Assembly (NCBI GenBank): GCA_964016885.1
Contig: OZ024760.1
Coordinates: 35,030,001 to 35,094,000 of the forward strand
Source: Eledone cirrhosa
Taxonomy: Eukaryota
Direction: 5' to 3'
Length of the DNA stretch: 64,000 bases
Part shown: positions 1,370 through 63,529 of the stretch, one piece after another
Layout: every line of letters begins with the position of its first letter
Position numbering within the stretch: the stretch's first letter is position 1
The notes under the pieces: model-generated
The model's database searches: none
What the model was told of the DNA's origin: nothing
What the model saw: the letters and a program-made list of their open reading frames with translations, nothing else
Program-made: the position numbers and the translations under genes

Positions 1370-1403
1370 GTTGAAAAGGAATGGAAAAGATGGGAAAGAC
1401 CAC

Positions 1404-4731: not shown

Positions 4732-4998
4732 TTCCCTTGCTTTTATCGAGAATCTAATTGTAATACGTGACGTATTCTATTCTATAGCGATTAGGTCTTC
4801 AAAATGTTTATTATAAACATACAGAATATTTTCGAATATTCTATGTCTATATTCACATATATATCGCTATTTCAGAGCATTTATTCCAATTTCTAATTTC
4901 TGCCGGACCGGCAACCGCTCTTTCAAACCAGTTCCTGTACACAGCTAAGTATTCTATAAGTCTCTAGCTGTGTCATTCTCGATAAAAGCACTGGATAT

Positions 4999-5041
4999 GT
5001 AGTCCTGATGATTTCTAACAAGAATGAAACGCGTAGATTAC
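4999..5041 (+). ncRNA. Minimal type I hammerhead ribozyme motif (H1 copy 5)
   Basis: Identical to copy 4, 310 bp along. Confidence 0.8.
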
Positions 5042-5467
5042 TTCCCTTGCTTTTATCGAGAATCTAATTGTAATACGTGACGTATTCTATTCTATAGCGA
5101 TTAGGTCTTCAAAATGTTTATTATAAACATACAGAATATTTTCGAATATTCTATGTCTATATTCACATATATATCGCTATTTCAGAGCATTTATTCCAAT
5201 TTCTAATAATAATAATGATTTCTTTATTAACCACAAGGGTTTACATAAAGTAGACATTAAGGACAGTGCAGGACAATACAGTACGGTACAAATGGGCATT
5301 TCTGCGTGTAAAAAACAAAAACAGAGGATGTAACAAAAAAATAACAATGAAAAATTCCCCAATAGGGGGGAGACTTCGGAGGGACATATGTGGAGAAAGC
5401 CCAGTAAAAGGCCACAGTGACCCTGACTACCAAGGCAAGTGCCCTCTCCCAGTTTTCCACTTTTAAT

Positions 5468-8400: not shown

Positions 8401-8870
8401 TCCGCTAATCCCACACAGTCCCAGCGTGCATCTAAGATCCCGTTCCAGTCGCCCACTAACACTAAAGAGCGGGACGTTCCAAGAAAGGTCTCCAGACGCC
8501 GGAAGAAATCAGGCCGCCCTGCTCCTGTCGGGGCATAGACGGCCACTAGCCTGAAAGCTTGCCCGTCTCCGCTGCTCACGTCAAGCACCACCAACTTCCC
8601 CTCTGGGTCCAGGAAGATGGCCCGTATGGCGAGATCCAAACGTCTCCGAAAAAGCACAGCAACTCCTCCCCCCGATCCAGGACGGCTGGGAGATGCGTAC
8701 ACATCGTAGCCGCCGAAGATCGGTGCGAAGGCCCGTGCTTCGGAGATTCTGGTCTCGCTGATGGCCACTACATCTATGTTTAGTGACCTGAGGTCGTTGA
8801 GCAGGTGACCCTGCTTCCATGACGACCCCAAGCCACGCGCATTTATGCTGCCTATTTTGAGTTAGGTCAT
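5468..8870 (-). pseudogene. T2 ORF2 (APE endonuclease + reverse transcriptase + CCHC), disrupted
   Basis: KSPGLDG, FRPITLLN, RQGCPLS, AYADD, CPRCAKGDETVLHALVQC; split by stops and a frameshift. Confidence 0.9.
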
Positions 8871-8905
8871 GTTTAAAAGAGAGTGGAAAAGATGGGAAAG
8901 ACCAC

Positions 8906-10536
8906 TTACCGTACTTTTCGTAGAGGAGGGATGGTTTTTCCATCCCTTTTCATTTGATCGTCTGGTGAAGGGACCGTTGAATCGTCCCTTCGGCTGGTCG
9001 TCGGCTCTTCTATGAGTATGTCCGAATATACTCTTCGGTTGAGTGTCCCTCCTAGGTCTCTGAAATCACCAACTGCGTTGGGGAATTTCGTTTTAATATT
9101 TGTGTATTGTTTCTGTGCTATTTTTAGCAGTCTTATGTTAGTTGGCGTTTTGATTGGTGCTGGTATTATGTAGTCGTGTTGTGAAATGTCAGTGTGTTCA
9201 ATTATGTAAGTCATTAGTTTCTTGTTGTGTGTATTTATTGCCGTGCATTTGTTTTTCTGGGGGTGGGGTGTGGTTCTGCTATTTTCTTGTCGTTGTTGCT
9301 GGGTGTGTGTGTTTTGTTGTTGTGTTTGCGTGGTTGGTGCTTGTGGTGGTGGTGTTGAAGGTGTTGTTGGCGGTGGGGTTGTCGCCGGCGGTGATGGTGG
9401 TGCTAGTGTGGGTGGTGATGGTGTTGGTGGTGTTGCTGCTGTGAGTCTCTTTGCAGTAGCCTTTACCCTTTTTGCATTTCTTTCCTCCCTTTTCAAAGGC
9501 GACGATGCGCTGCTTCTGCGTTTGTGCCTGCTTACGACCTTTTGCCATCCCTCTCCCACCTCACACTCCATGTCTGATTCTGTGAGGTCGGGGAGGGGTA
9601 CCAGCTCCACTCTTTCACTTGTTGTTGTTGGTGATGTTTGCACTGGAGTCTCTGTTGCAGCTGCATTTGGTATTGCTGTTGTTGTTGTTAATACTTCCAC
9701 TGCTGCTGCTGTTTTTGATTTCCGTGGCGTGGGTATGGGTGCCACGGACCTATCGTTCCTGGTTGCCGCTTGTCCTGTTGCTGGTAGCCGTGGAGCCGGT
9801 TTCGGAAGGAGGGGGCTTTTCTCCTTTCTCAGGGTCTTCTCGTTGCAGAAGGCCCTGAGGTGAGTCTTCGATCCACAGCGAAAGCATTTCGGGCGTTTGC
9901 CCTCAACACTTATGGGCAGTTGAGTGCCGTTATCGAAGTCTATCACATCCCGGATAGCTTCGATGCAGTCCTGGTTGCTTTGGATTAACATCTCAATGGA
10001 GGTGCCGACCCAATCTTCTCTTACTTTTTTCTGTAATTGCAGTACAGTTGTTTTGTCCTCGATTCCGACGAGGACAGACGCGGCCAGCCAAGAAGGGGCC
10101 ATCCCGGGGGGGACGTGGGTCAGTTTGACCCTCACAATTTTTTGCCCGCAGTAGGAGGGCACCAACACCATTTCCTCGCTCCTTGGGGTCACTAAGGATT
10201 GAGCCTTTGCCTCCTGGGGTGTGACAAAAAGTACGTCTACGGTGGCATATTTCTTGCCTCGGGTGATGTGCGTTTTCCGCTGCCACACAGACCCCAAGGC
10301 TTTTTGTATTTGAGCCTCTGTGGCTCTTTCAACCCTACGGGATTTTGTACTTACTGTACGGTACGTGACCGTACAGTGCTGTTGGGTTTCGAAAAATGTT
10401 TCTGCTGCCTTGCAGATTGCTCGGTGTCCAGTTTTTGTCACCATCTTCTTCGCTTCCTCTAATTCCTCATTTGTTATGAGGATGGTTTCCAGGTTCTTTG
10501 CGATACCTGCAAACGAGATTGGTTTTTCTTTGCTGC

Positions 10537-10578
<42 letters not shown>

Positions 10579-11089
10579 CGTCAGAGCTGCTGTTACTTTT
10601 GTTGTTGTTGCAGGTACTACGACTACTGCCGCCGCCGCTGTTACTGTGGTTGTTGTTGTTGTTGCTGCTGCTAATGCTGTTGTTGTTTATGCTGCTGCTG
10701 ATGCTATTGCGGCTGCTACTGTTGTTTTCATTGTCACTGTTGCTGTTGTTATTACGGCTGCTACTGCTATTATTCCTGACGTCAGACGAATGAAATGGGT
10801 TTTCGTACTTCCCGCACACCTGTTTCGTCGTTGTCGTCGTGGAGAAATCTTGCACGCTTTGCACGAGACTTTTCTTTTCTGTCGTCGCTTGCGAAAGAGA
10901 AGGGAGGGAGAGAGACACATTTAAAGAAGGGAGGGAGAGAGACACATTTAAAGAAGGGAGGGAGGGAGACAATCTTCTCTCTGCTGTAGTGACGATTGAG
11001 GAAGAAGAAGACGGAATGAGTGGGAGTGACCTATGAAAATTCTTTTTCGTAGCCATGTTGTTTTTTTGTTTAAAATAAATATTGGGCAC
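8906..11089 (-). CDS. T2 ORF1, gag-like nucleic-acid-binding protein (open; ATG probably at 11056)
   Basis: 727-aa ORF with CCHC knuckle CFRCGSKTHLRAFC, poly-N/S and Pro/Thr-rich tracts. Confidence 0.8.
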
Positions 11090-11295
11090 AAAACCCCAAT
11101 AAGCAGTTATTTAACCCCGAAGGGCCAAATAACGGGCAGAAAGACCCCTCTCACGAGGAGGAGGGTGTTTTTGTCTACAAGTAGGTTAAAGTTTGAAACA
11201 ATTTACAATTGTTATAGCGGTCAAAATTTACAATACCTTACAGAGCCGAGCCTCCGTCAACCATAGCATTCAATAATAATAATAATAATAATAAT

Positions 11296-25250: not shown

Positions 25251-26029
25251 CCCCAACCCCTCCCCTCCTCTCCTCTGGCTACACTATATAGGACAGCTAA
25301 ACTTACCAACACCAGAAACTAGATACACCACCCACCCCATCATCTGTGTACACTAAACACAACAGCCAGATAACGACACATTTTCACCTTCACCTCCACC
25401 GCTCACTACGGCCATCATTACCACCACTATCCCATCACCGCCGCCACCACCCCTTGACTCCGCTACAGCACCATCACTACAGTAATACGGTCACATCACC
25501 GCCACCACTGCCTCGGTATCGACATCACCACCACCACTGTCTCAGTATCGCTAACGCCGCCAGTCTCCCACTTCCCCCTGCTGGCTGCTACTTCCACATT
25601 ATAGAATTCCTACTACTAACAAAGAGGAAGGCATCAAAATATATAGATAGACCCAAAAGAAAAAAGAAAAAACAAACAACAAAACCAAAGCAGCACAGCA
25701 ACAACAGCAAAAAACGAGAAAAACAAACAGAGAAAAACAAAAACAAAAAAAAGAAACCCCAAAAACGTAAAGAAAATAAGAATGAAGAGAGAAGCAGGCG
25801 GACGGACAGAGAAGAGGGGGGAAAAAGTAAAACTTAAAAAACTAAAACTAAGTCAGACATTCGAACACTACATTACAATGAAACTTATGCTTATTCATTT
25901 TTGGGGCCCTTTCTGCCTGTGTGTTTGTTTGTTTATGTGTGTTCGTATACAGCGTGGTGATAATGCCACACAAGGGCCAAGTGGAACGGCGAATCCACAG
26001 ATGGCTATGTAACCATACATTCGCCAATC

Positions 26030-27146
26030 CGCGTATAGGAGAAATACAAAAGATAGTACTAATGGGAACTGCCCATATACTAAGGAAGATCCTGTCAATA
26101 TAAGTACATCACAAGTCTAAACACTAAGGATGCATGTGTGAATATGTATGTTCTTTCTTGAACATGGCGGACCTTGTTGTCTCTTGAGGTCACTGGTTGT
26201 GACTTGGTGATAACTCGTATAAACATAAAGCAAGATAAATGCAAATAATAATAATAATAATAATAACTATAATAATAATAATAAAAACAAAAATGTATCT
26301 ATAAAAACATTTGAAAAATTGAGCAAGTATAAGGACCTGGAGATAGAAATTGGAAAAATGTGGAAATTGAGAACTAAAACAATACCAGTGGTTGTAGGCG
26401 CTCTGGGAATGATACCTAAGGGGTCTAACGACTACTTATCGCAAATCCCAGGAAACCCGCGTATAGGAGAAATACAAAAGATAGTACTAATGGGAACTGC
26501 CCATATACTAAGGAAGATCCTGTCAATATAAGTACATCACAAGTCTAAACACTAAGGATGCATGTGTGAATATGTATGTTCTTTCTTGAACATGGCGGAC
26601 CTTGTTGTCTCTTGAGGTCACTGGTTGTGACTTGGTGATAACTCGTATAAACATAAAGCAAGATAAATGCAAATAATAATAATAATAATAATAACTATAA
26701 TAATAATAATAAAAACAAAAATGTATCTATAAAAACATTTGAAAAATTGAGCAAGTATAAGGACCTGGAGATAGAAATTGGAAAAATGTGGAAATTGAGA
26801 ACTAAAACAATACCAGTGGTTGTAGGCGCTCTGGGAATGATACCTAAGGGGTCTAACGACTACTTATCGCAAATCCCAGGAAACCCGCGTATAGGAGAAA
26901 TACAAAAGATAGTACTAATGGGAACTGCCCATATACTAAGGAAGATCCTGTCAATATAAGTACATCACAAGTCTAAACACTAAGGATGCATGTGTGAATA
27001 TGTATGTTCTTTCTTGAACATGGCGGACCTTGTTGTCTCTTGAGGTCACTGGTTGTGACTTGGTGATAACTCGTATAAACATAAAGCAAGATAAATGCAA
27101 ATAATAATAATAATAATAATAACTATAATAATAATAATAAAAACAA
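26030..27146 (+). repeat. About 2.6 identical tandem copies (428-bp period) of the family A 3' end
   Basis: Identical ORFs at 26319 and 26747; the same interrupted tail (AAT)n-AACTAT-(AAT)n-AAAAAC in each copy. Confidence 0.9.
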
Positions 27147-27382
27147 AAACTAAGTCAGACATTCGAACACTACATTACAATGAAACTTATGCTTATTCAT
27201 TTTTGGGGCCCTTTCTGCCTGTGTGTTTGTTTGTTTATGTGTGTTCGTATACAGCGTGGTGATAATGCCACACAAGGGCCAAGTGGAACGGCGAATCCAC
27301 AGATGGCTATGTAACCATACATTCGCCAATCCTCGATAAGAGTGTTTAAATATCGAACATAAAGAGTTCGAATAACGGTGAA

Positions 27383-40155: not shown

Positions 40156-43100
40156 TTCCATGTACGTCCAATACCATGCGTAACGAAGCATGTACTGCGA
40201 GATGAACAAATAAAAATTAATACACAATGCCAAATCGCTTTTTCTATAGTTAATCAGGAAGCGCGTCCCGCAGGAAGGTGCCAACCTCAGATCGAAAAGT
40301 CCTCCACTGGTACAAACTCTTCTCTAATTATGGACCTGGATGGTCACTTGATCGGGGATTGCCCCAACTCGAGCCCTCCAGATCCACCACCCAAACCACC
40401 TCAAAAAGAAAACCTAAAAGAATGAAATGGACCCGAGAAAAGTATAAAGAAGTAATATATGCATATTACTATGCATTAGGTAAGCCATCACAAGACAGAC
40501 ACTTTAAACTCCTACAAAATCTGGAAAACTCGGAATTAAGCTAGCAGACGTGATATGGATGGAAATAAGTTGGCAAATGTAAGGAGGTATATCTTCAGAA
40601 ATAATAGACTCACAGACACTGAACTAACTGCGATCAAACAGGCTGTGGAGAATGACATAAATATAAATGATGAAAGAACTGAAGAATCTCCTGGAGATAG
40701 TAACCAGTCACAAGTCTTTACTGAAAGACCTCCATCTGACCAAATCACAAACAGGTTTGTAGAAATGAGAAGCCCTATTGAACCCACTGAAATAGCCAGG
40801 AGAGGGACTTAGAAACAGTAATTGAAAACCAAACATCTGCTGAAGAACACAGGGAGACTATGAAGGAATTAAAGCAAAAAATACTGAATGTCTTACTACT
40901 GCAAGCAGTAGTAACACATTCTAGTATAAATGATAGAGAACCACTTCAAAAATTCCCAAATACAATCCAAAATAGAAAACAAATAATTGTTTCTACTTTT
41001 AGCACAAGGCCAGCAATTACCCAATGCATTACTGGTACTTTATTCTATCGACCCCGGAAGGATGAAAGGCAAAGTTAACCTCGGCGGGATTTGAACTCAG
41101 ATCATACAGGGAGGTAACTCTATGCTTCAAAGCATGGCATCCGACCCTCTACCGATACTGCCAATCCACCAAATAGAAAACAAATAATTGTTTCTACTTT
41201 AGGCACAAGGCCAGCAATTACCCAGTACATTACTGGTACTTTATTTTATCGACCCCGTAAGGATGAAAGGCAAAGTTAACCTCGACGGGATTTGAACTCA
41301 AAAATAGAAAACAAATAATGATTGGTAATTCTGTGACAAAAGAAATCATAGAAGAAATAGAACCTGATCTTACTGAGTTAAATGAAATCATTTATGCATC
41401 TGCTAGAGTAATTGAAAGAAGTTGTTTACCACCAAAAAAACAAAAAAAGGCGCACCTTCGAGGTAAACCAATTTGGAGGAGTAGAATCGAAAAGGAGATT
41501 GACGTAACGAGAGGAGAAATATCTTTATTGAGTGAGTTAACCGCTGGAAATGATATAAGATCCAAGAAAGTAAGAAAGCTAAAGAGAAAATATGGACTGT
41601 CTTCTAGAGAAGCAATAGTTTCAACAAAAGAATCTCTGAAACAAAAAGTCCAACGAATTCGTAGATTCGAGAAACGAAACAACCTCTACAGGCAGAATAA
41701 GTTGTTCTCATCCAATGCCATGTCATTTTATAGAGAAGTAGGGAAGAAAAAAATAATTATTGAAGAAGTTGAAAACTTCTGGAGTAAGATTTGGAGTGAT
41801 GAGAAGACATATAATGCTAATGTAGATTGGATTAGTCGCCTGGAAAAATCCAACACAAATTTAGAAGAACAGGCGTGGGAAGACATATCTATAGCGGACT
41901 TAAGGACAGCACTCAATAAATCTCATATTTGGAAATCTCCTGGTAGAGACAGGGTGCCAAATTTCTGGCTTTCCTGACTCCCGTGCACTCACAATATATT
42001 GGTCAAGCTGTTTAATGGAATTATGAAAGATCCAAAACATACACCTGATTAGATAGCAAGTGGCATTACCTACCTTCTACCAAAGAACAACGAAACCAAA
42101 GATCCAAGAAACTATCGGCCCATAACCTGCTTGTCCACCACTTATAAACTATTAACCTCTATTTTCATGGAAAAAGCATACGTGTTTTTGGAGGAAAACA
42201 ATCTTTTCCCCATTGAACAAAGGGGTGCCGACGAGGTTCATATGGTTGCAAAGATCAACTTTTGATTAATCGTATGATACTTGACAACTGTCATAATAAA
42301 CACAGAAATCTCAGTTCTGCATGGATCGATTATAAAAAAAGCCTTTGACAGCATACCACACTAATGGATTCTGAAATCACTGGACATCTTCAAAATCTCA
42401 CCTGAGATCTCAAACTTCCTGAAGCACAATATGTCATTATGGAACACAAAGTGTCTCATTCCACTGGGGTACTGTGCTCTAGGAATATAAACATCAACTG
42501 TGGTATATTCCAGGGTGACTCACTTTCACCCTTGCTTTTCTGCATAGCTTTAATACCCTTTACATCCAAACTTAATATAACAGGGTACGGTTATAGAATT
42601 GACAACAAAAAAATAAGCCACCTATTTTATATGGATGATTTGAAGCTATATTGCAAAGATAATGATGAACTGGAAGGCCTTTTGCGGACAGTAAAAACGT
42701 TTAGCGATGACATCAGGATGGAGTTTGGACTTGACAAGTGTGCAAAAGCCACTTTCAAGAAGGGAAAGCTTGTCAACTCAGACTCAGTTGAATTGGATGC
42801 TGAAACAATCATAATGGAACTTGAGCAGGAACAAACCTATAAATACTTAGGGATTAATGAGGGCTCTGGCATACAGCATGCAAGTATGAAAGAGAGGATA
42901 AGGAAAGAATGTTACAGGAGAGTACGTGCAGTTCTGAGATCAGAACTAAACGCTCGTAATAAATTCCTTTGCAGTCCTAGTTGTCATTTATAGCTTCGGT
43001 GTGTTGAACTGGAATATGAGTTAAATCAAAAGAATCGACACCAAAGTCCGTATGCTACTGACCTGTAATAGGATGCACCATCCAAAAGCAGATGTGGGTC

Positions 43101-46009: not shown

Positions 46010-46127
46010 TTATGAAATCTTTGCTATGCAATGTAAAACTTTTTTACACGACTGTATGTAAAATTCCAACCATATGTCTTTGAATTGTCCCCTTTTCTTG
46101 TGCGCCCTTGCGACAAATAAAGAAATC
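46010..46127 (+). mobile_element. Solo Tx1-type 3' end
   Basis: TTGTCCCC..CCCTTGCGACAAATAAAGAAATC followed by (TATC)n; 5' boundary uncertain. Confidence 0.65.
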
Positions 46128-46173
46128 TATCTATCTATCTATCTATAAATATGTATATATAGATAGATAGATA

Positions 46174-46849
46174 GATTTCTTTATTTGCCACAAGGGAGCA
46201 AAAGAAAAGGGGACAATACAAAGACATATGGCGGGGATTTTACATACAGTTATGTAAAAAAGTTTTAACATTAAAATATAATAATCGAAATCCCCAATAG
46301 GGGGGAGGCGTTACAAATGGGTTGCTTTATACCCCGTAGATAGAACAACCCTCAATTCCAGGAGCATGTTGTGAAAGTGCTCCTTTCTTCCTGTTGCTCT
46401 CCTCTTCAACCTACAGGCTTATATACAGAGAAGACCCAATCACTCGGACCATTTTTGCCACGTTCACCCATCGTTCAGTAAATTTACTGTGGTGCAGTAC
46501 CTCTCTCTCCACTCTGATTCTCCTTCTAAAGTGGCACCTAAAGAAGAGAATGAGTTGTTGTCCAGAGAGAAAGGCATCTTTCCTCAGTCCTCTCAACATT
46601 GTCCACCATATAACCTCTTTTACCATAGCCACTCTACAGAGGAAAACCGCATCTCTTTCGGTTTTAAATGAAGATGGCGGTTTGATCCTTACTATGGACT
46701 CAGCAGTCAACTGGATTTGTCCCACACGTGACAGCAGTTGTTCTGCGTAGTTCCACAGGTCGGTTACGCCTGGGCAGTGTACAATTGCGTGCAGGACGGT
46801 TTCAATGTCCCGCTCGCCTCTTGGACACGTCCTCTTTGAAGGATCCCTG
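46174..46849 (-). mobile_element. 5'-truncated Tx1-clade element T4
   Basis: CPRGERDIETVLHAIVHC C-terminus (ORF 46411-46887); 3' end AATAAAGAAATC followed by (TATC)n. Confidence 0.82.
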
Positions 46850-47049
46850 GTTAACTGTCGATCAGTTTTTGTAAAGATCGATATCAACTAATTTGTGAGT
46901 TTATTTCGCCATCATTAAGTCCCAGGTTCGATCACACCTATGTGAAACTAGATAGACTGAAACTGTATAGAAGTATGTAATTCAAATGGCCAGTCTTATA
47001 ACACTGAATCTCCCTGAGAATTACGTATGTAATTATAGATCAACTTCTA

Positions 47050-47225
47050 GTGCTATAGCATGACCAAGCTGTTTAGATATTGCTGTACCATGGCCAGGAT
47101 TTTTAGATGGTGCTGTAGCATGGCCAGGGATCTTAGAAGGTGCTTTAGCATGGCCAGGGATCATAGAAGGTGCTGTAGTATGGCTAGGGATCTTAGAATG
47201 TGCTGTAGTATGCCAGGATACTTGG
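47050..47225. repeat. 30-bp minisatellite
   Basis: About 6 units resembling TGCTGTAGCATGGCCAGGGATCTTAGAAGG. Confidence 0.85.
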
Positions 47226-47624
47226 AACATGCGCACTGGATTTCTAAATCTCGTGCTTGCACATTCACCCCCCCCCCCCCCCCTCCATGGCCGTCAGTTT
47301 GTAGGATTTTCTAATCTTTCCAAAAACTCTTGTTAAGTGGTTTAACAATGGACAAGAGCAGCTTTCCGAAATGTAACCTAAATTTTTATATTACGTTGAT
47401 ATATTTTTTGTCGCCCGACCCTCTACCGATAATTGGCGATTATAAAGTTAAAAACACTGTGTATATATATACTGAAGTATATGTATGTATTTTTCTATTT
47501 TCTTTATTAATTTCTTTATTTAGATATTGTTAATACATAAAAATTATGTTATACAATACACCTTTTAACACCTTTTATTTGAAGGAAAACGAACATTTAC
47601 GATAGATAGACAATTAAGTGTGAA

Positions 47625-48056
47625 GTCTCCGATTTTTAATTGAAAATGCATCAGAAAATCGGACATTTGAGACTTAATGGTTTAAGGCATCGATGTTATC
47701 ATCAACTTCAATTTCGTCATCAACAATTTCAATTTCATCATCGCCAACTTCAGTTTCGTTTTCGACAACTCAAGTTCGTTATCATCAACTTCAATTACAT
47801 CATTAAGTCTGCCTGTCCGATTTTTAATGGGAAATGCATTACAAAATCGGACATCAACTATATAGATGTCCGACTGTTAATACTAAAATGCATTACGAAA
47901 TCGGACATCAAGATGTCCGATTTTGTAATGTATTTTAGTATTAAGTCGGACAGCTTCATAGTACATGTCCGATTTTGTAATGTATTTCCCATTAAAAATC
48001 GGACATGCAGACTTAATGACGTAATTGAAATTAACGATAACGAAATTGAAGTTGAC
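47625..48056. repeat. Fold-back / MITE-like palindrome built from TGTCCGAT..ATCGGACA subrepeats
   Basis: Arms ~47765-47909 and ~47912-48056 are imperfect reverse complements; an extra subunit lies at 47625-47667. Confidence 0.7.
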
Positions 48057-48059
48057 TTC

Positions 48060-48225
48060 TCCAGACCCTTACTCCGTCTACAGGTCTCTACAGACGTCTA
48101 CCGACCCCTTACTCCGTCTACAGGGGTCCACAGACTGCTACAGACCCTTACTCTCTCTACAGGGGTCTACAGACTTCTACAGACCCTTACTCTCTCTACA
48201 GGGGTTTACAGACTGTTACGGACCT
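48060..48225. repeat. 39-bp minisatellite
   Basis: About 4 units resembling CAGACCCTTACTCTCTCTACAGGGGTCTACAGACTTCTA. Confidence 0.8.
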
Positions 48226-48460
48226 TTCTCTCTCTTTCTCCTAGTCTCACAGGCTCTCACCTTCTCTGGCCACAGACTACACCAGCATAGCAGTGCTTCG
48301 GTTCAATTATCTGAAATTCCGAGGGTCCCCCTCTTTCCTGCTTCTGTTATTCCCACTGAAGGAATCTCCGAGGTTCCTCATATCCTAAAATCGATTGCGA
48401 GTATTGTAGTCTCTCGCAATAACAACAACAACAACAATAAACATTTGTCATTGTAGCGAT

Positions 48461-48650
48461 TAGGGCGGTGGATTGGCAGTATCGGAAGAGGGTCGGACGC
48501 CATGCTTTGCAGCAAAAAGTTACGGCCCTTTATGGTCTGAGTTCAAATCCCGCCCAGGTTAACTTTGCCTTTCATTCTTACGGGGTCGATAAAATAAAGT
48601 ACCAGTAATGCGCTGGGTATTTGCTGGCCTTGTGCCAAAAGTAGAAACAG
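48461..48650 (+). mobile_element. Near full-length tRNA-type SINE
   Basis: A-box TGGCAGTATCGG, B-box GAGTTCAAATCC, body GGGGTCGATAAAATAAAGTACCAGT; possible TAGCGA duplication at the ends. Confidence 0.8.
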
Positions 48651-48688
48651 TTATAGCGAAAGTCTTTTTTAAAATCTGTGTTGTTGGA

Positions 48689-49006
48689 CACACATACATA
48701 TATACATAGATATACATACATACACACAGAAATACATATATATACACACATACACACAGAAATACATATATATACACAGAAATACATACATACACACAGA
48801 TACATACATACACACAGAGATACATACACAGAGAAATACACATACATACACCAAGAAATACACACACATACACCGATACACACAGAAATACACATACATA
48901 CACCAAGAAATACACATACATACACAGATACACACAGAAATACACACACATACACCAAGAAATACACATACATACACCAAGAAATACACATACATACACC
49001 GATACA
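48689..49006. repeat. Compound CA/TA microsatellite
   Basis: Degenerate (CA)n/(TACA)n with recurring GAAATAC. Confidence 0.9.
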
Positions 49007-49316
49007 GAATTGAGTTGTTTAGTGAGAGAGGGGGAATTGTGAGAACGAGTGAGATATGTAGCGAGATATAGAGTAATTTCTATTTATTTGCCACCAGGGC
49101 ATCAAAGATTGGGACAAATACAAAGGGGGGCATTTACATACATTTAAAAAGACGTGTAAAAAAACATATAACAAATTAAATTTAACAATCGATGTCCTCA
49201 ATAGGGAGGGGCGTTGACATGGGTCGCACACACCCCCGAAAAAATGTGCAGCCCTCCTCTTCAGGAGCACAAAGAGCGGGTGCTCCCTTCCTCTTCTCAT
49301 TCTTCTCCTCTCTCAC

Positions 49317-52300
49317 CTACAGGCTGATATAGAGAGAAGGCCCATTCACTCGGGCCATTCTCGCTACTTTCACCCACCTTTCATAAAACTTGCTGGGGTA
49401 GAGCACCTCTCTCTCCATTCTGATCCTTCTTCTAAAGTGGTACTTGAAAAAAAGGACCAGTTGTTGGCCGGAGAGAAAGGTGTCTGACTTCAGCCCTTTC
49501 AACCTTGTCCACCATACAACCTCTTTCGCCATAACTATCACACAGAGGAAAACCGCCTCTCCTTCGTTTTTGAAAGGGGGAGGCGGTTTGATCGTGACAA
49601 TGTTCTCGGTGGTCAACCGAATTGGTCCCACCCGCGACAGTAGTCGTTCCACATAGTCCCACAGGTCAGCAACGCCCGGGCAGTGTATGAATGCGTGTGC
49701 GACGGTTTCCTCGTCACGCATGCATCTCGGACAGATCTTCTTCGAGGGGTCCCTACCCGGGCGCCCGTGTCTGTAGAGCTTTCCCGAACGGGTAGAGCTC
49801 CTCGGTAACATTGCCAAGCCAGGGACTTTTGGAAGTTGTCCATCGGTCCCGGGCCAAACGTCCTACCGAACAGACTGGCTAGCTCATCTTCCTCCATGCC
49901 CAGAGCCTCTCCGAGAGCGTCGTCGCACTTACTGCGCACCAACCCTCTATAGAAGTTGAGGTTGAGTCTCCACTGATAGCCGGATCCGCTAGCCAGAGGG
50001 CCGTGAGCAGCTGGGCACATTCAATGTGCCAGTCGCCCACTTTTCTCGGCCTTTGCTTGACCCAGGATTGCAGCTCGGTGAGTGAGACGAGTCTCGGAAA
50101 GGCTCGCCTCACAAACAGGGCCCACACCGGCTCACCGGTGAGGAATACCTGGAGGTGCCGTAGCCTTAATGCGCGTCTACGCATCGTCAGCCACGGCATC
50201 CCCAGCCCTCCGTTCGAAGGGTGTTGACAGCAGATGGATCTTCTCACCAAAGGAGCCCGCTTCTTCCAAAGAAATCGGAAGAGCGCGCGCTCCATTTTGG
50301 CGAGTGTTTTCTCTGGGCAAGGCACGACGGTCAAGCGGTAGTAGATGACGGACGCTATATAAGCGTTCGCCACCTCCGCTCGACCTTTCAGGGATAGTTT
50401 GCACTCGGCCCACTTCTGGGCGAGTGCAAACACCTTGCCCGTTACCTCGTCCCAGTTTTTCTCCACCTGGAGGTCCGGTCCGAACCAGACCCCGAGCAGC
50501 TTCACCGGTCCCTCCACGTTCTGAGTTGCAAACCGACGGACTTGTTCCGGTTCAGCTTGGCTCCTGTGAACCTTTCATATTCCTCCAGTAAGATGCCGAT
50601 CTGCCCGATTTCCGAGGCGCACGACACCATTACTGTCACGTCATCGGCGTAGGCCAACACCACTTTCCGCAATCCCGGTTCCAAGGGGATGCGCTGCAAC
50701 TGCTCCAGCTTCCGCAGTAGTGGCTCGAGAGCCAGCACATACAGAAGGGAGGAGAGAGGGCATCCCTGTCGGATGGATCGCGTGATTTGGAACGGCTCCG
50801 AGAGGTAGCCGTTCACCTTGACCCTCGAGCAGGTGTTGCTGTGCATTGCAGCAATCCAGCCCCTGAAAACGGGTTCGAAGCCTGCCGCCGCGAGCACCGC
50901 ATCCAGGTACCGATGGTCGACCCTATCGAACGCCTTAGATTGATCCAATTTGATCAGGGCCCCACCAAAGCTGGGTTCGTTCCCTACCCTCTCTACTATG
51001 TATCGCATGAGGTGGAGGTTGTCGTGTATGGACCTGGACGGGATTGCGCATGTCTGCGCTTCTCCCACCAGGTTCCCGACGACAAGCGCCAACCTCTTCG
51101 CTAACACCTTGGCCAAAATCTTTAACTCTGTGTTTAGCAGAGTTATGGGCCTGAAGTTATCTATGTCATCCCCCTTGTTCTCGTCCTTCCTTACCAGCGT
51201 GACTACGCCCTTGGTCACACAACTGGGAATTCTCCCGTTCTGTTGCCAGTTGCAGTAGACCGCCTCGAGGAGACCGGAGAACAAGCCCGGCATCGCTACA
51301 TAAAGTTCGTATGGTAGACCATCGAGACCCGGAGATTTGCGTTTGCCGCATTGGCTCAGCGCTTCCCCTATCTCAGCTGCTGAAATCGGCCTCTCGCAGG
51401 ACTTCGCCTCCCCGTCCGAGAGCCGCGCCAGACCGTCGAGGTATGGACCGAAATTCATGGCCCCACCCGGCGCGCCGCCCCTTCCGAACAGTTGAGCAAA
51501 GTGCCGCTGAAAGGCCGCACACATCTGCTTCGGCTCACGTATCACGCGTTCGTTTTGGTCCTTCAAAGACCGAATCGTGGACTTGTTGCCACTTTTTGCC
51601 TCTGTCACTCGGGCCCAGCTAACAGCTTTGGCTCCCTCGTTACCCAGAGCACGTATTTTACTCCTGACAACGCAGCCCTCGTGCTTCGCATCAAAGAACT
51701 GGTCTAGGGCCGTTCTTGACGCCAGCACGCCGGCCACGTTGCCACTCCTAATCGCCTCTTCTACTCTATCTATTAATTCCCTTTCAGTTCTATTCCTATC
51801 TGATGCTAATTCTTGACTAAAACCTATCGATTCTATTCTAATTTCTCTCTTGAGAGAGCCCCACCACCTGCTGTTGACAATTGCCCCCGTCAACCGCTGC
51901 TTAACTAGTGTGCTAATCTGCTTACTGTAAGCTTTGTTTGTCGGTAAAGACAAGTTTAGCTTCCAGTAACCGGGTCCCTGTCTATGAGTTCTATCAAGGT
52001 TGACCACTCCGGTCACCAACTTATGATCCGAATAGTCAACCATGAACATTTGTGGACAGCTTAATATGTCCCTATCCTTATTTCTAACTAGGAACCTATC
52101 TAGGTACGACCTAGATGTTCCGCTACGATTAGTCCACGTCCACAGTGGCACAGTCGGAAAATCTAGTCGATATCTATCGGCCAGATCAAATCGGCCGATT
52201 AATCGTTTGAGGCTGTTACACCCCCCTCTATCGGGACATGCCCCTACATAGTCCCAACGTGCATCCAGGATACCATTCCAGTCCCCCACTAAAATCAAGG

Positions 52301-52703
52301 AGCGAGATGTTCCCAGGAAATTCTCCAGGCGTCGGAAGAAGTCCGGTCGCAGTGTCCCAGATGGGGCATACGCTGCCACCAGCCTGAAAGCTCCACCTTC
52401 ACTACTGCCGACGTCTAAAACCACCAGTCGACCCTCCGGGTCCAGATGTACCTTCTGTGTGGCAAGACCCAGGTATTTTCGCAGCAGAACGACAACCCTA
52501 CCCCCACCCCTCGGCTGACAGAGAGATGCGTAGATCTCAAAGTCGTCGAAGATGGGGGCCAGTTGGTGCTCGCTGCTGATCCTGGACTCGCAAATAACCA
52601 TTACATCCACTCTGTGCGACCTGAGGTCATTTAAGAGTTTGCCCTGTTTCCAGGACATCCCCAGGCCGCGTGCATTCACACATCCAACTCTTATATTTGC
52701 CAT
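49317..52703 (-). pseudogene. T5 ORF2 (APE + RT + CCHC), disrupted
   Basis: 733-aa piece (CVNARG, VGDWN, SDHK, RQGCPLS, AYADD) plus 49879-50517, 49613-50020 and 49317-49817. Confidence 0.88.
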
Positions 52704-52744
52704 GTTGGTGCTGAAGAGTTAAAAGGAAGAGGAAAGGAAATTAC

Positions 52745-54563
52745 TTACCTCTTCGTCTCCTGGGGACCAGGCTGCACAATTTCCATGGGGGTGTTGGAAG
52801 GGTTGTTTGGTGGGGTGGTGGTTTGTGGTGGGGTGAGGACATCAGTGTGTGGTGGGATTGGGGTGTTTGGTGGGGTGTGGATGTCTGGTGTGGGGGTGGG
52901 GGTGGGGAAACATCTCAATAGGACGCTGTTAAGTGGTTTGGTGCAGGTGGTCCCCACATGCATTGGATGGTTCTTTTTCAGAGTTACATAGGTTTCCGTT
53001 GGGACCCTAATCATCATTAGGTGCGGTTTGTTCGCTGCGTAGGTGAAAGTGATCCCTTCGGTTTCCACCGAAGGGTTATTATCTATTGCTTTCATCAAAG
53101 TTTTATTGTTCTTGTTAATGTATGTATAGAGTTTTTGTTGTGTTTTTGTTTTTGTTTGTTGTTCTTGTGCGTATTTGCGTTTTGTAGTATGTGTTATGTT
53201 TTCGGGAGGGGTGGGTTTTTTTGTTTGTGATGTTTGTTCTATTTGTGCTGGTGGTTGTGTTTGTTGCATTTTTGTTAATGTGGTGCCTTTTTTTTTCCTT
53301 TTCACCTGTTGAAAGGGTTCTCCCTCGTCGTCACTGGGTGACGTTTATACGGAGTCCTCTTCCGTGTTGTTGGGGAGGGGTATATTTTGGGGTTTTGTTG
53401 TGGTTGCTTTTGTATTTGTTTTAGGTGGGGAGGGGTTGGGTGGAACAGTGTCTTGTGTTGTTATTTTTCTGTGTTGTTGTGGTTGTTGTTGTTGTTGTTG
53501 TTGTTGTGGTGGTGGTGGTGGTGGTTGTGTTGTTGTGTTCGGGGTTGGCAGAAGAGCCCTTTTTTTTACTCGTTAATTGAGGACAGGCAGCCCTCAGGTG
53601 ACCCCTGCTTAAGCAGTGGTAACATGACGGCCGCCTTCCCTCCACTGAAATGTTTATATAAGTTAGCCCGTCCAGAGGCACGCGTTGTGGGATATTCGCT
53701 ATTCGTTCTGGGCTCATTTGCACCAGAACTTCTACGCTGGTCCCACCAAATACACCTCCGGAGGACTTTCCTACTGAAATTATCCTGTCTTCATCAAAGT
53801 CAATGAATCCACATAGTATCCACCAAATATTTACATTTGGTGTGATACTCATTATTTTTATTCTTTGTGTCCTTTTTCCCCTGTTTGTGGGGAAAAAGGT
53901 GAAGCGGGGCGACACAATGGGTGATACAGAGTATTTTTGTGCTGTTGGCTGGTTATTCATTAGCACCGAAATGCTACCAAACAGTTTTCCTTTTTGGATG
54001 AAGGTTATGTCCTTCATTGCATCTTTTAGAACCAGCTCAATTTCATTTTGTGATAATTGAGCTGGTTTTCTTGTTTCGTTAGATATTGTCCTGAGAACCA
54101 CAGTTTTCAGGACAGCCTCTCTACGTAATACCTGTGGAGAATTGATGCTAAAAGCACCGTTTTCGCCAAAAGTCACGAATTGTTTTGCGTCTTGTAGTAG
54201 TTGTTTAGCATTTGTTATGTCAATTGGCGTGTATAGTTCGTTTTTTTTTACAGTCTGTGCGAACGTCGTTTTGGTGTTGTTGTCTTTTTTGTTGCTGTTG
54301 TTGTTGTCACTGTTGGTGATATTGTTCATGTTTTCCTTGGTGTTGTTATTGTTGCAGTTGTTGGTTGTGGTGTTATTGTCATTGTTCTTGTTGTTGGTGC
54401 TGGTATTATTTACCGGGTTTGGTTCCGTGGTTTCAATATTTTCAACGTTTTTCGATAATGCGAGGAGGGAAGGCTGCAAGCTTTGTACTCCTACCTTCCC
54501 TCCACCACTTTTCTTAGTGAACGTGGTACTCACGACAGTGTGCGAGGTTGAAATGGCATCCAT
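52745..54563 (-). pseudogene. T5 ORF1 (zinc knuckle), disrupted
   Basis: VEGRRPSCYHCLSRGHLRAAC; pieces 53421-54563 and 52745-53305. Confidence 0.8.
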
Positions 54564-55061
54564 TGTTGACTACCAAGTCTACACAGTTTTGAGATGAAAA
54601 TGAAAATTTCGCCCCAGAAAGGGGCGAAAATTGGTTGACTCAACGTCTGAAGGCCCAAGCAAGGGGTTAAACTAAACAATGCTAACAAATTGAACAATGA
54701 ACTCACAGTTTTTTTTAACAATAATCTGTAAAAATCCGGAGCGAAGTAATACATGAGTTTGTTGATTTAGTGAGATGAGAGAGGGGGAATTAAGAGAGTG
54801 AAAGAGAGTGAGGTATGTAGTGGAATATAGAGAGAGGGAGAGAGTTTGGTGGTTTAGTGAGAGAGGGGGAATTGTGAGAATGATAGAGTGAGATATGTAG
54901 TGGAATATAGAGAGGGGGCAATTGTTTCTAGGTTAATGTGTATGTGTGTTTATACGTGTGCATGTGTGTGTGTTTATATATATATATTAAAATAACAGAT
55001 TAAAGTTTAAGCAAAGAATCGCTGCTTTCACCCTTAACGGGATCTTCTGAAACATTATTAT

Positions 55062-55111
<50 letters not shown>

Positions 55112-55115
<4 letters not shown>

Positions 55116-55777
55116 TAGAATTGGTGCTCTGAAATAGCCATATATATATGAATGTATATATAGTGTATTTTGCAATACACTTTATGCTTAATTAAAAGCA
55201 TTTTGAAGACCGTATGCTATTGTTTTAAAGTAGTGACAGACTCACTTACTTTAATTTCAGCAAACAGGGGGAGATAAAGCTGACAAGGCCTTGTTTCTGC
55301 ATTTATTGATGCTTATCAAAGCCAACTACTCCTCCCGTTCGCTGAAATTACGGATGTTATGTTCTTATAGAATTCTAGTAAATAATCAGGAACTGATTAT
55401 ACAGAGCGGTTGTCGGTCAAGCAGAAATTAAAAATTAGAATTGGTGCTCTGAAATAGCCATATATATATGAATGTATATATAGTGTATTTTGCAATACAC
55501 TTTATGCTTAATTAAAAGCATTTTGAAGACCGTATGTTATTGTTTTAGAGTAGTGACAGACTCACTTACTTTAATTTCAGCAAACAGGGGGAGATAAAGC
55601 TGATAAGGCCTTGATAAGCATCAATAAATGCAGAAACAAGGCCTTGTCAGCTTTATATCCCCCTGTTTGCTGAAATTAAAGTAAGTGAGTCTGTCACTAC
55701 TCTAAAACAATAGCATACGGTCTTCAAAATGCTTTTAATTAAGCATAAAGTGTATTGCAAAATACACTATATATACA

Positions 55778-55790
<13 letters not shown>
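55112..55790. mobile_element. Hammerhead-like 320-bp repeat element H2 (related to H1); ~1.6 units followed by an inverted partial unit, within (TA)n
   Basis: Units start at 55112 and 55432; inversion at ~55610; shares CATTTTGAAGACC, CAGGAACTG, AGAGCGGTTG, GCAGAAATTA and GCTCTGAAATAGC with H1. Confidence 0.8.
55278..55323 (-). ncRNA. Variant hammerhead motif (U3-A8 core)
   Basis: Reverse complement GGCT-TTGATAA-GCAT-CAATAA-ATGC-A-GAAAC-AAGGCCTT-GTC-AGCT; second copy on + at 55607-55652. Confidence 0.6.
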
Positions 55791-55813
<23 letters not shown>

Positions 55814-56991
55814 TAGAAGGGATATTTAATTTGTTGGAAATTCAACAAATATAAATGTTTATAACTGATTCAGAGCACTCGACGGTTTTCTGGAGTAAAT
55901 ATTCATTGATATTAAATAAATGGAAACTATATTTATAAAACCATAGTTATTCTATTATATATATTTCAAGGGTACCAAAAACTTTCGTACGCTTTCATCA
56001 GATAAAATACAAAGTGTGTTTTATAAATTTTGACATAGCCAAGAAAAACATACCTTATCAGTTGAATTTTCCTTGGATAGTGAGTTTAAAGAACGGAATT
56101 TTTCAAAATTGTTAGGATGAGTATGCAAATAAATATGTAAATGAGGTTGAGTTATATGATTGAAAAATCTTTATTTTAAACGCTATGGAAAGTTTAGATA
56201 TATTAGTAGGAGAGAAAGAAAGAAAAAGGAAAAAGAAAAAGAAGACCACTTATATACGTTAATTTTGGGGGAAAAAATTTATATCGAGAATTATGTTTGT
56301 AAGTATTTATCTTATTACAATATTGTAGTGGGTTAAATATATAAATATCTATATATGTATTATTATTAAAGAGATAATTTGCAATTATTAGTTGTTTATA
56401 ATATGAGTTACGAGAGATGTTCATTTTGTGTTTTATGTAGATAAATAAATAAATAAATAAATAAATAAATAGGTAGTTCAAGTTTTTGGTGGTTGTTTAT
56501 AATATGAGTTACAAGGGAAGTTGATTTTGTATTTTATGTAAATAAATAGGTTGCTAAAATTATGAATTTATATATTTGAATATCTTGTTCGGCTTTGAGA
56601 ATTTAACGGAGTTACTTATATAATAATGTAATAAGTTTATATGATTGAGAAAGGAAAAGATAACTCCAATTTTGATTGTTAATCGATAAATTTTTTTTAA
56701 GAGTTAGTGTGACGTTAATTAATTATTTAGTAGAAAGAAGTGTGAATGTTTAAAAATCGTTTTGAATAGGATACATTTTTCAAATGTCAGTTAATGGTTA
56801 TTAATCTCCGTTTAAAAGTAGCTTTAGAGGGTGTCATTGGAAAAATATAATGTAAGAATTAAAGATATACATAAATATATATATATATAAATATATATAC
56901 ACATATATATATTTACAAATAAATATATATATATATATCCAGAATTAGCCGTCGAAACGGCTTGAGCTCAGCCGTCGGGGTCTTACTGGTT

Positions 56992-57070
<79 letters not shown>

Positions 57071-57075
<5 letters not shown>

Positions 57076-57299
57076 AGTATGTATGTATACGTACATACAT
57101 ATATGTATACAGACGTACAGTAGCATGCATATATATGTTAAGGCAACCACGTCACCTTTTTGTTCAAAGGTGACGTGGTTGCCTTAACACCGTGCGGCAT
57201 AAATTCAGGCTGTTCAGTTTATTTACAAACGAACAAAGCGGGCGCTATAATAAGCGTCCGCTAAACTGATGCGTACATATATGTATGTGTACCTGTATG

Positions 57300-57387
<88 letters not shown>

Positions 57388-57822
57388 TGCTACTGTACGT
57401 CTGTATACATATATGTATGTACGTATACATACATACTTACATTTAAGTAAGTGCCGTACTAAGAGTGAGAAATGAAATTTCGTTTTCATTTTTTTTACAA
57501 CTCATCGTTTTCGGTGCGCCTGACCGATTTAACTCACTCGATATGCAAATTAGGCTGCTCAGCCGTTAATTTTCATAAGGAAAGTATATACTTTCGAACG
57601 TTCAACTATCTGGCAGATGGGTATACGGTGCTGATGATAGCTAACAGGCTTGAAACTAGTACATCGTTCCTGTGCCAGTGTTGAACAAAAAGGTGACGTG
57701 GTTGCCTTAACACCGTGCGGCATAAATTCAGGCTGTTCAGTTTATTTACAAACGACCAAAGCGGGCGCTATAATAAGCGTCCGCTAAACTGATGCGTACA
57801 TATATGTATGTGTACCTGTATG

Positions 57823-57910
<88 letters not shown>

Positions 57911-58024
57911 TGCTACTGTACGTCTGTATACATATATGTATGTACGTATACATACATACTTACATTTAAGTAAGTGCCGTACTAAGAGTGAGAAATGAAA
58001 TTTCGTTTTCATTTTTTTTACAAC
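57071..58024. mobile_element. Hammerhead-containing 523-bp repeat element H3; short inverted arm followed by ~1.6 units, within (TA)n
   Basis: 57166-57688 is repeated at 57689-58024; 57071-57167 consists of reverse-complement pieces of the unit. Confidence 0.82.
57626..57666 (+). ncRNA. Minimal type I hammerhead ribozyme motif (H3)
   Basis: CGGTG-CTGATGA-T-AGCT-AACA-GGCT-T-GAAAC-TA-GTA-CATCG; outer stem GTTCAAC..CTGGCA/TGCCAG..GTTGAAC. Confidence 0.82.
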
Positions 58025-58061
58025 TATATATATATATATATATATACAGATTGGGGTATGT

Positions 58062-58129
<68 letters not shown>

Positions 58130-58192
58130 CATTTTTGCTGAAAAAGATATTACCAATTAGAAATATTAAAATATTAAAAATTTAAATTGTTA

Positions 58193-58362
58193 AAGAGACT
58201 CATAGCGAACTCAAGACGACACGGTAATTATTTAAGTGAATTTATAATGTAGAATTCGGTTTAAGTGTATTTCGTATTAATCATTACTAAACATCTAATA
58301 TGAGATATTGAACATTACCTTAAATAATTATCGTGTCGTCTTGAGTTCGTTATGAGTCTCTT
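58193..58362. repeat. Inverted repeat with ~44-bp arms and an ~80-bp spacer
   Basis: AAGAGACTCATAGCGAACTCAAGACGACACGGTAATTATTTAAG / CTTAAATAATTATCGTGTCGTCTTGAGTTCGTTATGAGTCTCTT. Confidence 0.8.
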
Positions 58363-58584
58363 TTTTATAAAAGGATGCCACAGAGTGTACGATAGATAAT
58401 GATTAAAATATTTTTGAGTAACAACTCTAGTCCCACACTTTTGAAGGTTTATTATAACATTCTGTGGCTCTTTTGAGCTTATCGAGCCTCGTGAAATAAA
58501 TACGTTTGTTTATATTTTGTTATTGTATATGCAAAAATATCTGTACACGAATATATAATTATCTATCTATACAATTGTGATAAT

Positions 58585-59776: not shown

Positions 59777-61080
59777 CAGGGTGGGGCATAAAAACTGTTA
59801 CAAAATAAAATGCAAATAGTTCTTGAAAAAAACATTTATTTCAAGATCTGACTTCAACAAATAGTAAGTAATATACTATTAAACAACTGCACAAAAATTT
59901 ATTCGAAATGCTTTCCTCTAACTCTCACCACCGCTGGAAGTCTTCTAGGAAAGTCTTCGATGACTGCACGAACAGTTTCCATGGGTATTTTCTCCCCTAC
60001 TTTATTCAGTTTTGATTTTAGAGTTTCAATATTTTGGCTAGGAGTAGAGCAGGTTTCACTCCCAAGAATTGACCATAAAGAAAAATCGAGAGGGTTGAGT
60101 TCTGGTGATGTGGGATGCCACTCTTCCTTACTGATCCATGCATGACAATGGTCTCTACACCACTGTTATGTTATGCAAGCAGTGTGGCTCGTCGCTCCAT
60201 CTTGTTGGAGAGTCCAAATGTCATCGCCATAAACAGATATGCACCATGGCATCAGTGCTCCTTCCAAAATATCCTTTATGCAAAGTTCTTTGTTAATTTT
60301 AACTCCTTGAGGCACAAAAATCAGAGGAGACTTACCTCTTTTAGAAATGGCTGCCCAAATCATCACTGATGCTGGTTTCTGTGTTCTGAACACTTTTCCT
60401 ACACTTGAAGGAATTGATTTGAGACTTTTTGCAAGTACTCGATCATTTTGATGATTGTGAGACTGCTGCACAGTGAATAACTTCTCATCTGTAAAGATGA
60501 TGTTTTGCAGCGTGCCATCCTTGATACAATTCAATAACAGTTTACTTCTGGAGAGCCTCTTTTCAATTGTGGCTGCAGAAAGAAGATCTCTCTTTTGGAA
60601 CTTATAGGGTGACATCCCCAGATCATTTCGACATATCCTCCGCATAGTTCTCGGCGATGTTTCTGTTTCTTCTGCCATTTTTCTCATAGACCTTCTTCGA
60701 TTACGCCTTATTTTTTCCCTCAGACTTTTAACGAGTTTTGGTGTTCTTGAGGTGCGAGGGCGTCCGGATCGAGGTCTGTCTTTGGTCGAGGAAGTTTCCT
60801 TAAATCGATCGATTGTCCTTTTGATCAACATTCTATTGATCTTAAGAATTTTCCCCAGTTTAAATATCTTGGGTGGAGTCAGGCCTTTTTCATGCTTCTC
60901 TATTATGAACTTTCTTTTCAATTCTATGGACATTGCAAATTGTTAATGGAGTAATGTTCTGAAAAATAGTTAATATGGTTATAGTGCATGGATTTGATAT
61001 AAATATATTAGTTATATTAGCAACATAATGTATTTTTAAGTTGATTTAAAATTTTGTAACAGGAATTATGCCCCACCCTG
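59777..61080 (-). mobile_element. Tc1/mariner DNA transposon, DD37D (maT) type, 1304 bp
   Basis: ~30-bp TIRs (CAGGGTGGGGCATAA..CTGTTACAAAAT) with TA on both sides. Confidence 0.92.
59899..60933 (-). pseudogene. DD37D transposase with an in-frame stop at 60166-60168
   Basis: RSGRPRT, FTDEK, QQDGATSH, then after the stop WHPTSPELNPLDF; 37 residues between the second and third D. Confidence 0.88.
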
Positions 61081-61625: not shown

Positions 61626-63419
<1,794 letters not shown>

Positions 63420-63421
<2 letters not shown>

Positions 63422-63470
63422 TGAAACAAAATGAAAACGAAATTTCATTTCTCACTCTTACATGCATACT

Positions 63471-63475
<5 letters not shown>
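63420..63475 (-). repeat. Short fragment of the H3 unit end
   Basis: AAAATGAAAACGAAATTTCATTTCTCACTCTTA is the reverse complement of 57460-57493. Confidence 0.7.

Positions 63476-63529
<54 letters not shown>

Follow-up and report, generated by a model that had tools for sequence, protein, structure and literature searches.

The repeat at positions 55112-55790 of the 64-kb window (the whole stretch of DNA analysed), here called H2, is best explained as a non-autonomous retrozyme that was likely copied by a Penelope-type reverse transcriptase into AT-rich microsatellites, and whose U3-A8 hammerhead motif would, by prediction, cleave only in a pair of copies held together through a 12-base palindrome. 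The probability of this reading is put at roughly 0.7. It starts from the anatomy of the locus, homology with a second repeat of the window (H1), stems that covary between the two, copies found at family level in sequencing reads and the tandem joints among them. Judged from its letters, the U3-A8 hammerhead is genuine and is shared at family level; the repeat that carries it resembles a retrozyme, with a non-coding tandem unit inside the 150-450 bp and GC below 50% that are typical of retrozymes, and a highly self-paired monomer.

Anatomy of the locus and of its ribozyme

The locus is a single insertion in (TA)n, with target sequence on the left at 55065-55111 and on the right at 55768-55811, the latter overlapping the end of the inverted arm. 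It is made of 1.57 tandem units and a head-to-head inverted arm. Unit 1 (55112-55431) is a full monomer of 320 bp whose RNA sense is the minus strand, it is joined by a partial, 5'-truncated tandem unit on the same strand (55432-55613), in which 3 of 182 bases depart from unit 1. The inverted arm (55611-55790, plus strand) is likewise 5'-truncated, is without a tail and differs from unit 1 at 2 of 180 bases, and at the inversion junction (55607-55613) helix III and the stem I/core strand share 7 nt of microhomology, one position of which is mismatched. The GC content of the region is 0.34, and no open reading frame above 40 amino acids was found in the element.

Read along the minus strand, unit 1 begins with a conserved upstream block at 55362-55431, which is identical to H1 at 50 of 70 positions. 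The ribozyme is enclosed by a 16-bp distal extension of stem I, with its 5' arm at 55334-55349 and its 3' arm at 55253-55268. Between these arms lie the stem I 5' strand GGCU (55320-55323), the core UUGAUAA (55313-55319, running U3 U4 G5 A6 U7 A8 A9 from U3 at 55319 to A9 at 55313) and stem-loop II (55299-55312), in which GCAU (55312-55309) pairs with AUGC (55302-55299) across the loop CAAUAA with pair probabilities of 0.87-0.99. An extra A (55298) precedes G12 A13 A14 A15.1, the GAAA of 55297-55294 (together 55294-55298), and then follow the 12-nt palindromic helix III ACAAGGCCUUGU (55283-55294), with a self-duplex energy of -19.5 kcal/mol, and C17 (55282) with the stem I 3' strand AGCU (together 55278-55282), the predicted cut falling between 55282 and 55281. 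Further downstream are a 13-nt block with the same letters in H1 and H2, GGUCUUCAAAAUG (55199-55211), a conserved 3' block with a pair of hairpins (55162-55201; 8 bp with a GCAA loop, and 6 bp) and, again on the minus strand, a one-sided tail of 28 nt (55112-55139), or at most 38 nt with its inner end lying within ATATATATAT, which contains the motif GCUAUUUCAGAGCA common to H1. The unit length of 320 bp and every H2 feature named in the preliminary description were recovered in unit 1 on the minus strand.

The core is that of a type I hammerhead with a U3-A8 pair and all remaining core bases canonical. Stem I has 4 bp, with 4 and 16 more distally, stem II has 4 bp, and stem III has 4 bp, or 12 bp in a dimer; that stem I is so short and includes a G-U pair counts against the preferred reading. 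In the copy in the window the extra A interrupts the step from G10.1-C11.1 to G12. Placing this A as an A-A or G-A mismatch was rejected, since either stem II would be disrupted or the core would lose length. The locus holds one complete ribozyme only, that of unit 1. The second UUGAUAA (55611-55617, plus strand, with its palindrome at 55636-55647) had its stem I 5' strand cut away where the inversion begins, and the partial tandem unit has AUC where unit 1 has GUC.

A strict U3-A8 descriptor gave a single match in the 64-kb window and matched in 2 of 200 shuffles (mean 0.01); the same descriptor misses H1, which has a U-U at the base of stem II. Rfam gave no match at gathering thresholds in the whole 64-kb window, and its hammerhead models gave none to H2 at E<=10. 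H1 gave a weak HH9 match (E=0.029) under the gathering threshold, and Rfam is a weak test for this lineage because H1 too fails at gathering. Rfam matches by E-value over the H2 locus (mir-577, mir-6302 and others) reflect the inverted-repeat hairpin only and were set aside. Exact-pattern scans for the blocks shared by H1 and H2 gave 0 matches in metagenome contigs and 0 in viral contigs. A third hammerhead candidate lies nearby on the minus strand at 55925-56015, with CUGAUGA at 56001-55995, a long imperfect stem II, GAAA, a palindromic helix III AUAUAUAU and an 8-bp stem I. The motif TGCTCTGAATCAG at 55865-55877 resembles the tail motif of H1 and H2 in an orientation opposite to this third core, and may be chance.

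Homology with H1 and copies in sequencing reads

H1 is a 310-bp repeat of tandem-plus-inverted build at 3596-5207, with a tail of about 44 nt. It sits inside the (AAT)n tail of an upstream LINE and carries five canonical CUGAUGA cores (three minus, two plus), a 6-nt palindrome ACGCGU and a GUA site. The preliminary description had spoken of blocks colinear with H1; an upstream block, a 3' block and a 13-nt block are conserved between the two. Identity between the two repeats is 50/70 upstream, 64/122 in the ribozyme and 92/128 in the 3' block. Over the 112 bases upstream of the core the two align without gaps at 65 identities, set against 23-36 at 12 neighbouring offsets, and this ungapped register makes U3 and A8 homologous to C3 and G8 of H1; the ungapped alignment was used for the core as a global gapped alignment misplaces gaps in the ribozyme.

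A 16-bp distal stem begins 30 bases ahead of position 3 in either repeat and is paired at 16 of 16 positions. Between H1 and H2 both partners differ in 8 of these pairs and a single partner in 2, and no pair is broken. When the 18 changes were placed at random all pairs of this stem were kept in 0 of 200,000 trials, a lenient control in that the stems were chosen from the same two sequences. In the 3' hairpins 14 of 14 pairs are kept with 3 double changes, which 63 of 500 shuffles matched and is not significant with two sequences. The loop of the first hairpin is GCAA in H2 and UUCG in H1, both of which are extra-stable RNA tetraloops. Register and covarying stems together make decay of H2 unlikely.

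Among 12 runs listed in a survey of sequencing reads, nine held part of the H2 unit, and none of the 12 was an RNA run containing it. Four runs were analysed at 80% likeness, in which 3,293 contigs (X1), 8,090 reads (X10), 45 contigs (X4) and 5 contigs (X5) aligned to H2 under three organism labels. Substitutions were judged from the best-supported 40 of 129 difference rows, after exclusion of rows 55148-55159, which derive from H1-type reads. None of these 40 rows falls in 55287-55332, where the depth of X10 is about 578 reads; were the rows spread uniformly, 55294-55323 would be free of them with a chance of 0.02, a figure biased by the clipping of divergent reads. As rows of far lower support are present among the 40, neither C3 nor G8 is likely to be the majority form. 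The preliminary description had named a CUGAUGA consensus as the outcome that would count against it, and such a majority is not indicated, the view being that of the best 40 of 129 rows, with a minority form possible. Its main proposal, a compensatory variant and not decay, is supported by the homologous register, the covarying stems and the lack of any core position among those 40 differences.

The extra A, which the same description regarded as non-canonical, is present in the copy in the window and is not a feature of the whole family. It is absent from 363 of 487 X10 reads (56 starts), in which G12 directly follows the G10.1-C11.1 pair, from 9.9 of 12.2 depth in X4, from 4,775 of 10,264 depth in X1 (21 contigs) and from 0 of 2.1 depth in X5. 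Since most raw reads are without it, it appears to be a subfamily trait. Roughly one X10 read in four, about half the contig depth of X1 and the one X5 contig keep it, so copies with a non-canonical core have spread, which speaks against the preferred reading.

Elsewhere in the unit the variants are of two kinds. All 6 distal-stem positions among the best 40 of 129 rows keep pairing, alone or jointly, with two G-U pairs becoming A-U in 80-94% of X10 reads and 55346/55256 becoming C-G, and in the 3' hairpin the variants 55165/55178 become A-U at unphased shares of 0.47 and 0.42. Other variants disrupt structure and tell against the preferred reading: 55286 (186 of 581 X10 reads) breaks the helix III palindrome, 55187 (515 of 1,104 X10 reads) opens a pair of a 3' hairpin in which the partner is unchanged among the best 40 of 129 rows, and 55171 (608 of 1,363 X10 reads) disrupts the GNRA loop.

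The reads also hold joints. The head-to-tail tandem joint 55429 to 55112 occurs in 15 X1 contigs and 1 X4 contig, 561 X10 reads pass into (AT)n at 55140, and 2,527 X10 reads run on into H1 sequence; H1 is abundant in X10 and is present in the loose ends of X4 and X5. The depth of X1 falls more than tenfold over the ribozyme and stays high over the flanking blocks, partly through H1-type reads on the shared blocks. A stretch of 78 other letters takes the place of 55271-55352 in a single X5 contig and in 16 X10 reads that have one start, and in loose ends of X4 a plain GAAA is followed by different self-complementary helix III sequences.

Predicted folding, insertion and spread

Folding models give predictions only, with kinetics, concentration, tertiary contacts and protein help outside their scope. 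In these models a single H2 copy prefers a helix between GGCUUUG, the stem I strand with U3 U4 G5, and CAAGGCC (55293-55287), which is predicted to be inactive. The active fold of the monomer lies 5.2 kcal/mol above the minimum with a stem I probability of 0.006, and with C3 the gap is 2.3. The circular 320-nt monomer is highly folded (z=-5.7 against 60 shuffles, 61% paired), and the inactive helix persists in it (0.78-0.98). Two copies folded together without constraint have as their optimum a double hammerhead whose core is unpaired throughout. Its energy is lower than that of two monomers by 9.9 kcal/mol, or by 6.3 kcal/mol when the extra A is left out, set beside 6.1 for the H1 dimer. It is thus predicted that the H2 hammerhead would cut only when two copies pair. 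The variant 55286 abolishes the predicted dimer advantage (+2.1 kcal/mol). When C3-G8 is modelled into the H2 dimer the optimum is a misfold with a GCUC/GAGC hairpin across the core, 4.0 kcal/mol below the double hammerhead.

A different account keeps the type of element and supposes that its ribozyme is dead or nearly so, with U3 and A8 being two ordinary transitions that became fixed in one master copy, and this copy spreading because reverse transcription needs no cleavage. Both changes are indeed transitions in AT-rich DNA, the monomer disfavours the active fold, copies with the extra A or the 55286 variant have spread, and insertion by a Penelope element in vitro was not stopped by ribozyme mutants according to the available text of PMC11167929. 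Yet the nine remaining conserved positions of the core are unchanged, against only 64 identities with H1 in the 122 bases around them, two changes among 11 conserved positions would fall on 3 and 8 only once in 55 even before pairing is demanded, the stems covary and the dimer fold is the predicted optimum, so that a dead ribozyme is regarded as unlikely.

The marks of insertion point to how the retrozyme may have been copied. In both H1 and H2 the direct arm has a tail and the inverted arm none, microsatellite lies on either side, and the junction, near the ribozyme, shows a short imperfect microhomology. Partial tandems, an inverted 5'-truncated copy, a one-sided tail (of 30-40 bp) and AT-rich or microsatellite targets are the build of Penelope insertions, as far as the accessible portions of PMC8557442, PMC3846280 and PMC11167929 describe it, and all are found in both repeats. 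In the Poseidon element of the anole, as presented in the consulted part of PMC11167929, a stem-loop contains two start sites of reverse transcription with the tail between them, the target is cut and extended on each of its strands with ATT preferred, and cleavage by the ribozyme requires protein and is yet dispensable for insertion in vitro. From these Penelope-like marks the conserved 3' block is likely to be the region where reverse transcription starts. The conserved blocks had been suggested to be promoter or RT-recognition signals, and the second part of that suggestion gains from the insertions of H1 and H2 ending at the 3' block with a one-sided tail.

The promoter part fared less well, for internal A and B boxes of the kind found in Pol III SINEs were absent from both strands of H1 and H2 in a scan for the consensus, and T4 runs lie on both strands. 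The box patterns used were those which we take to be standard. A sigma-70 scan was at chance level and is irrelevant for a eukaryote.

The proposed cycle would begin with transcription of tandem source loci into multimeric RNA. A lone unit would fold into the inactive form through GGCUUUG and CAAGGCC, whilst two units could swap strands to give a double hammerhead that cuts after GUC, releasing 320-nt monomers which may circularise. A Penelope-like RT/endonuclease would then nick a (TA)n or (AAT)n target on its two strands. Synthesis of cDNA would begin at two sites in the conserved, hairpin-rich 3' block, separated by about 30-45 nt, so that one arm has a tail and the other has none. That the arms become joined head-to-head via a short microhomology close to the ribozyme is a conjecture, chosen among several models. 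In H1 the inverted arm (837 bp) is longer than the direct arm (780 bp), so simple fold-back cannot be the sole route. By the rule applied to retrozymes H1 would count as active and the H2 locus, with one complete ribozyme, would not. In the transcript of the whole locus the core is predicted to pair with the inverted arm, and because of this self-folding, the single complete ribozyme and the minority extra A the locus in the window is probably a dead-end copy.

If the tail and arms were instead those of a 5'-truncated insertion of an autonomous Penelope-like element, H2 would be its pseudo-LTR and there would be no separate non-autonomous family. Tandem, inverted arm and tail are all the build of truncated Penelope copies, and U3-A8 is known from such pLTRs, but the units join head-to-tail without intervening sequence both in the window and in the 15 X1 and 1 X4 contigs. 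H2 itself has no open reading frame above 40 amino acids, where an autonomous element would have an RT and GIY-YIG frame between pseudo-LTRs, and no Penelope/GIY-YIG match was found among the 23 of 50 open reading frames scanned in the window. Moreover, a 4-bp helix II with a long stem I fits the canonical ribozymes of retrozymes and not the minimal pLTR type, going by the portion of PMC4209133 at hand, and this alternative is considered quite improbable.

The window at large is a microsatellite-rich cluster of retroelements, with APE, RT and zf-RVT frames on the minus strand and RT frames on the plus strand (23 of 50 open reading frames scanned). Minus-strand APE-RT-zf-RVT elements, which we take to be L1-like, occupy 1-11110 and 46400-54569 with Asn/Thr-rich ORF1-like frames and two weak MBD matches, and the plus strand at 11296-45400 holds several RT elements that are nested and carry (AAT)n tails. 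On the same strand a 428-bp tandem (26029-27149) encodes GTAHILRK near a stop, presumably the restriction-like endonuclease end of R4/Dong-type elements, which target TAA repeats, and 41267-41974 has a weak Pfam match to the rotavirus VP4 helical domain (E=0.0014) that is below the cut-off and probably spurious. At 59790-61080 a Tc1/mariner-type transposase remnant with HTH matches and apparent terminal inverted repeats lies in (TA)n. Other inverted repeats (62615-63529, 46030-46272, 47766-48054 and 58192-58363) are possibly further fold-back insertions. A 337-bp direct repeat, 99.7% identical and with (TA)n inside, is found at 57166-57502 and 57689-58025, and short GC-rich stretches at 56942-56995 and 62230-62262 hold GAGCTCAAGCC in opposite orientations and adjoin (TA)n.

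Both H1 and H2 lie 230-540 bp upstream of the ORF1-like frame of a minus-strand APE-RT element, and it could be supposed that their ribozymes process the 5' end of neighbouring L1-like elements. This is very improbable as both sit inside microsatellites with inverted arms of their own, H1 is embedded in the (AAT)n that ends the upstream LINE, the shared blocks are absent from the many other LINE copies of the window, and reads of the family enter diverse flanks. Equally improbable is satellite DNA spread by recombination with the ribozyme as a relic, which would suit the tandem units and high read depth but not the short arrays, 5' truncation, tail and microsatellite targets, all of which indicate reverse transcription, nor the RNA-type covariation and tetraloops on one strand.

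With the retrozyme reading in place, a bolder model may be sketched, which is doubtful in our own estimate. The H1/H2 lineage might consist of a fixed RT-recognition chassis (3' hairpins and tail) with an exchangeable ribozyme module, in which U3-A8 was selected for folding and not for chemistry. By the same model U3 would lock the monomer off, U3-A8 would avoid the GCUC/GAGC hairpin of C3-G8, and cutting would occur only as a palindrome-paired dimer. The fall in X1 depth, the 78-letter replacement and the other palindromes of X4 fit such an exchange of modules.

Comparison with known systems

The U3-A8 pair is less novel than the preliminary description implied. Natural covariation of C3-G8 to U3-A8 is known in several hammerheads that are active in vitro (PMC3088659), and U3-A8 occurs in about 1,300 Penelope motifs of Schistosoma, one of those listed with UUGAUAA (PMC4209133), in the available parts of both papers. 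Those of PMC3088659 are from other hosts and contexts than H2, and the insertions discussed in its accessible text are A6a, U13a and 2a/2b, with none at 11.1-12. The hammerheads of the Cercyon Penelope-like element of Schistosoma mansoni resemble H2 in U3-A8, a palindromic helix III and a dimer model, a model that the part seen of PMC6765202 summarises for hammerheads. They differ in being minimal, mostly single and placed in the pseudo-LTRs of 3-kb coding elements, and they have a long helix II with an extra base after A9, whereas H2 has a 4-bp helix II with an extra base before G12 (PMC4209133, same portion).

Compared with Penelope-like elements that have an endonuclease (Poseidon PAc, PMC11167929; Penelopes of Adineta, PMC3846280; Naiad/Chlamys, PMC8557442; each in the sections available), H2 has the same partial tandem, inverted truncated copy and tail of that length but encodes no RT or endonuclease. 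Retrozymes have been tied to Penelope pLTRs, a link argued hitherto from co-occurrence and phylogeny (bioRxiv 10.64898/2026.07.22.740005 and PMC7229834, in the excerpts available), and the tails and inversions of H1 and H2 point to Penelope-type reverse transcription of retrozymes. If the bolder model is true, the tails would be a direct footprint of the Penelope RT on retrozymes, and surveys that demand CUGANGA would overlook whole families like H2. Against the preferred reading, 8 of 9 Xenopus retrozyme dimers failed to cleave in vitro (same bioRxiv excerpt).

The metazoan non-LTR retrozymes are the closest in build, with AT-rich, non-coding tandem units of 150-450 bp, a type I hammerhead and a predicted self-paired monomer (PMC7229834, in its available part), and the axolotl, in the text at hand, has two related ribozyme families in one genome, as H1 and H2 are here, one of them with the U-U at the base of helix II seen in H1. 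H2 is unlike the metazoan retrozymes so far as these are described there in its U3-A8 core, 12-nt palindromic helix III, 16-bp extension of stem I and inverted tailed insertion. No retrozyme family with U3-A8 and no 11.1-12 insertion was found in the literature searched, and supplements may list such cases. H1 with C3-G8 and H2 with U3-A8 make a natural homologous pair for asking why the core pair swaps. As each ingredient of H2 is already known singly, the element refines the picture of retrozymes, and overturns nothing in it.
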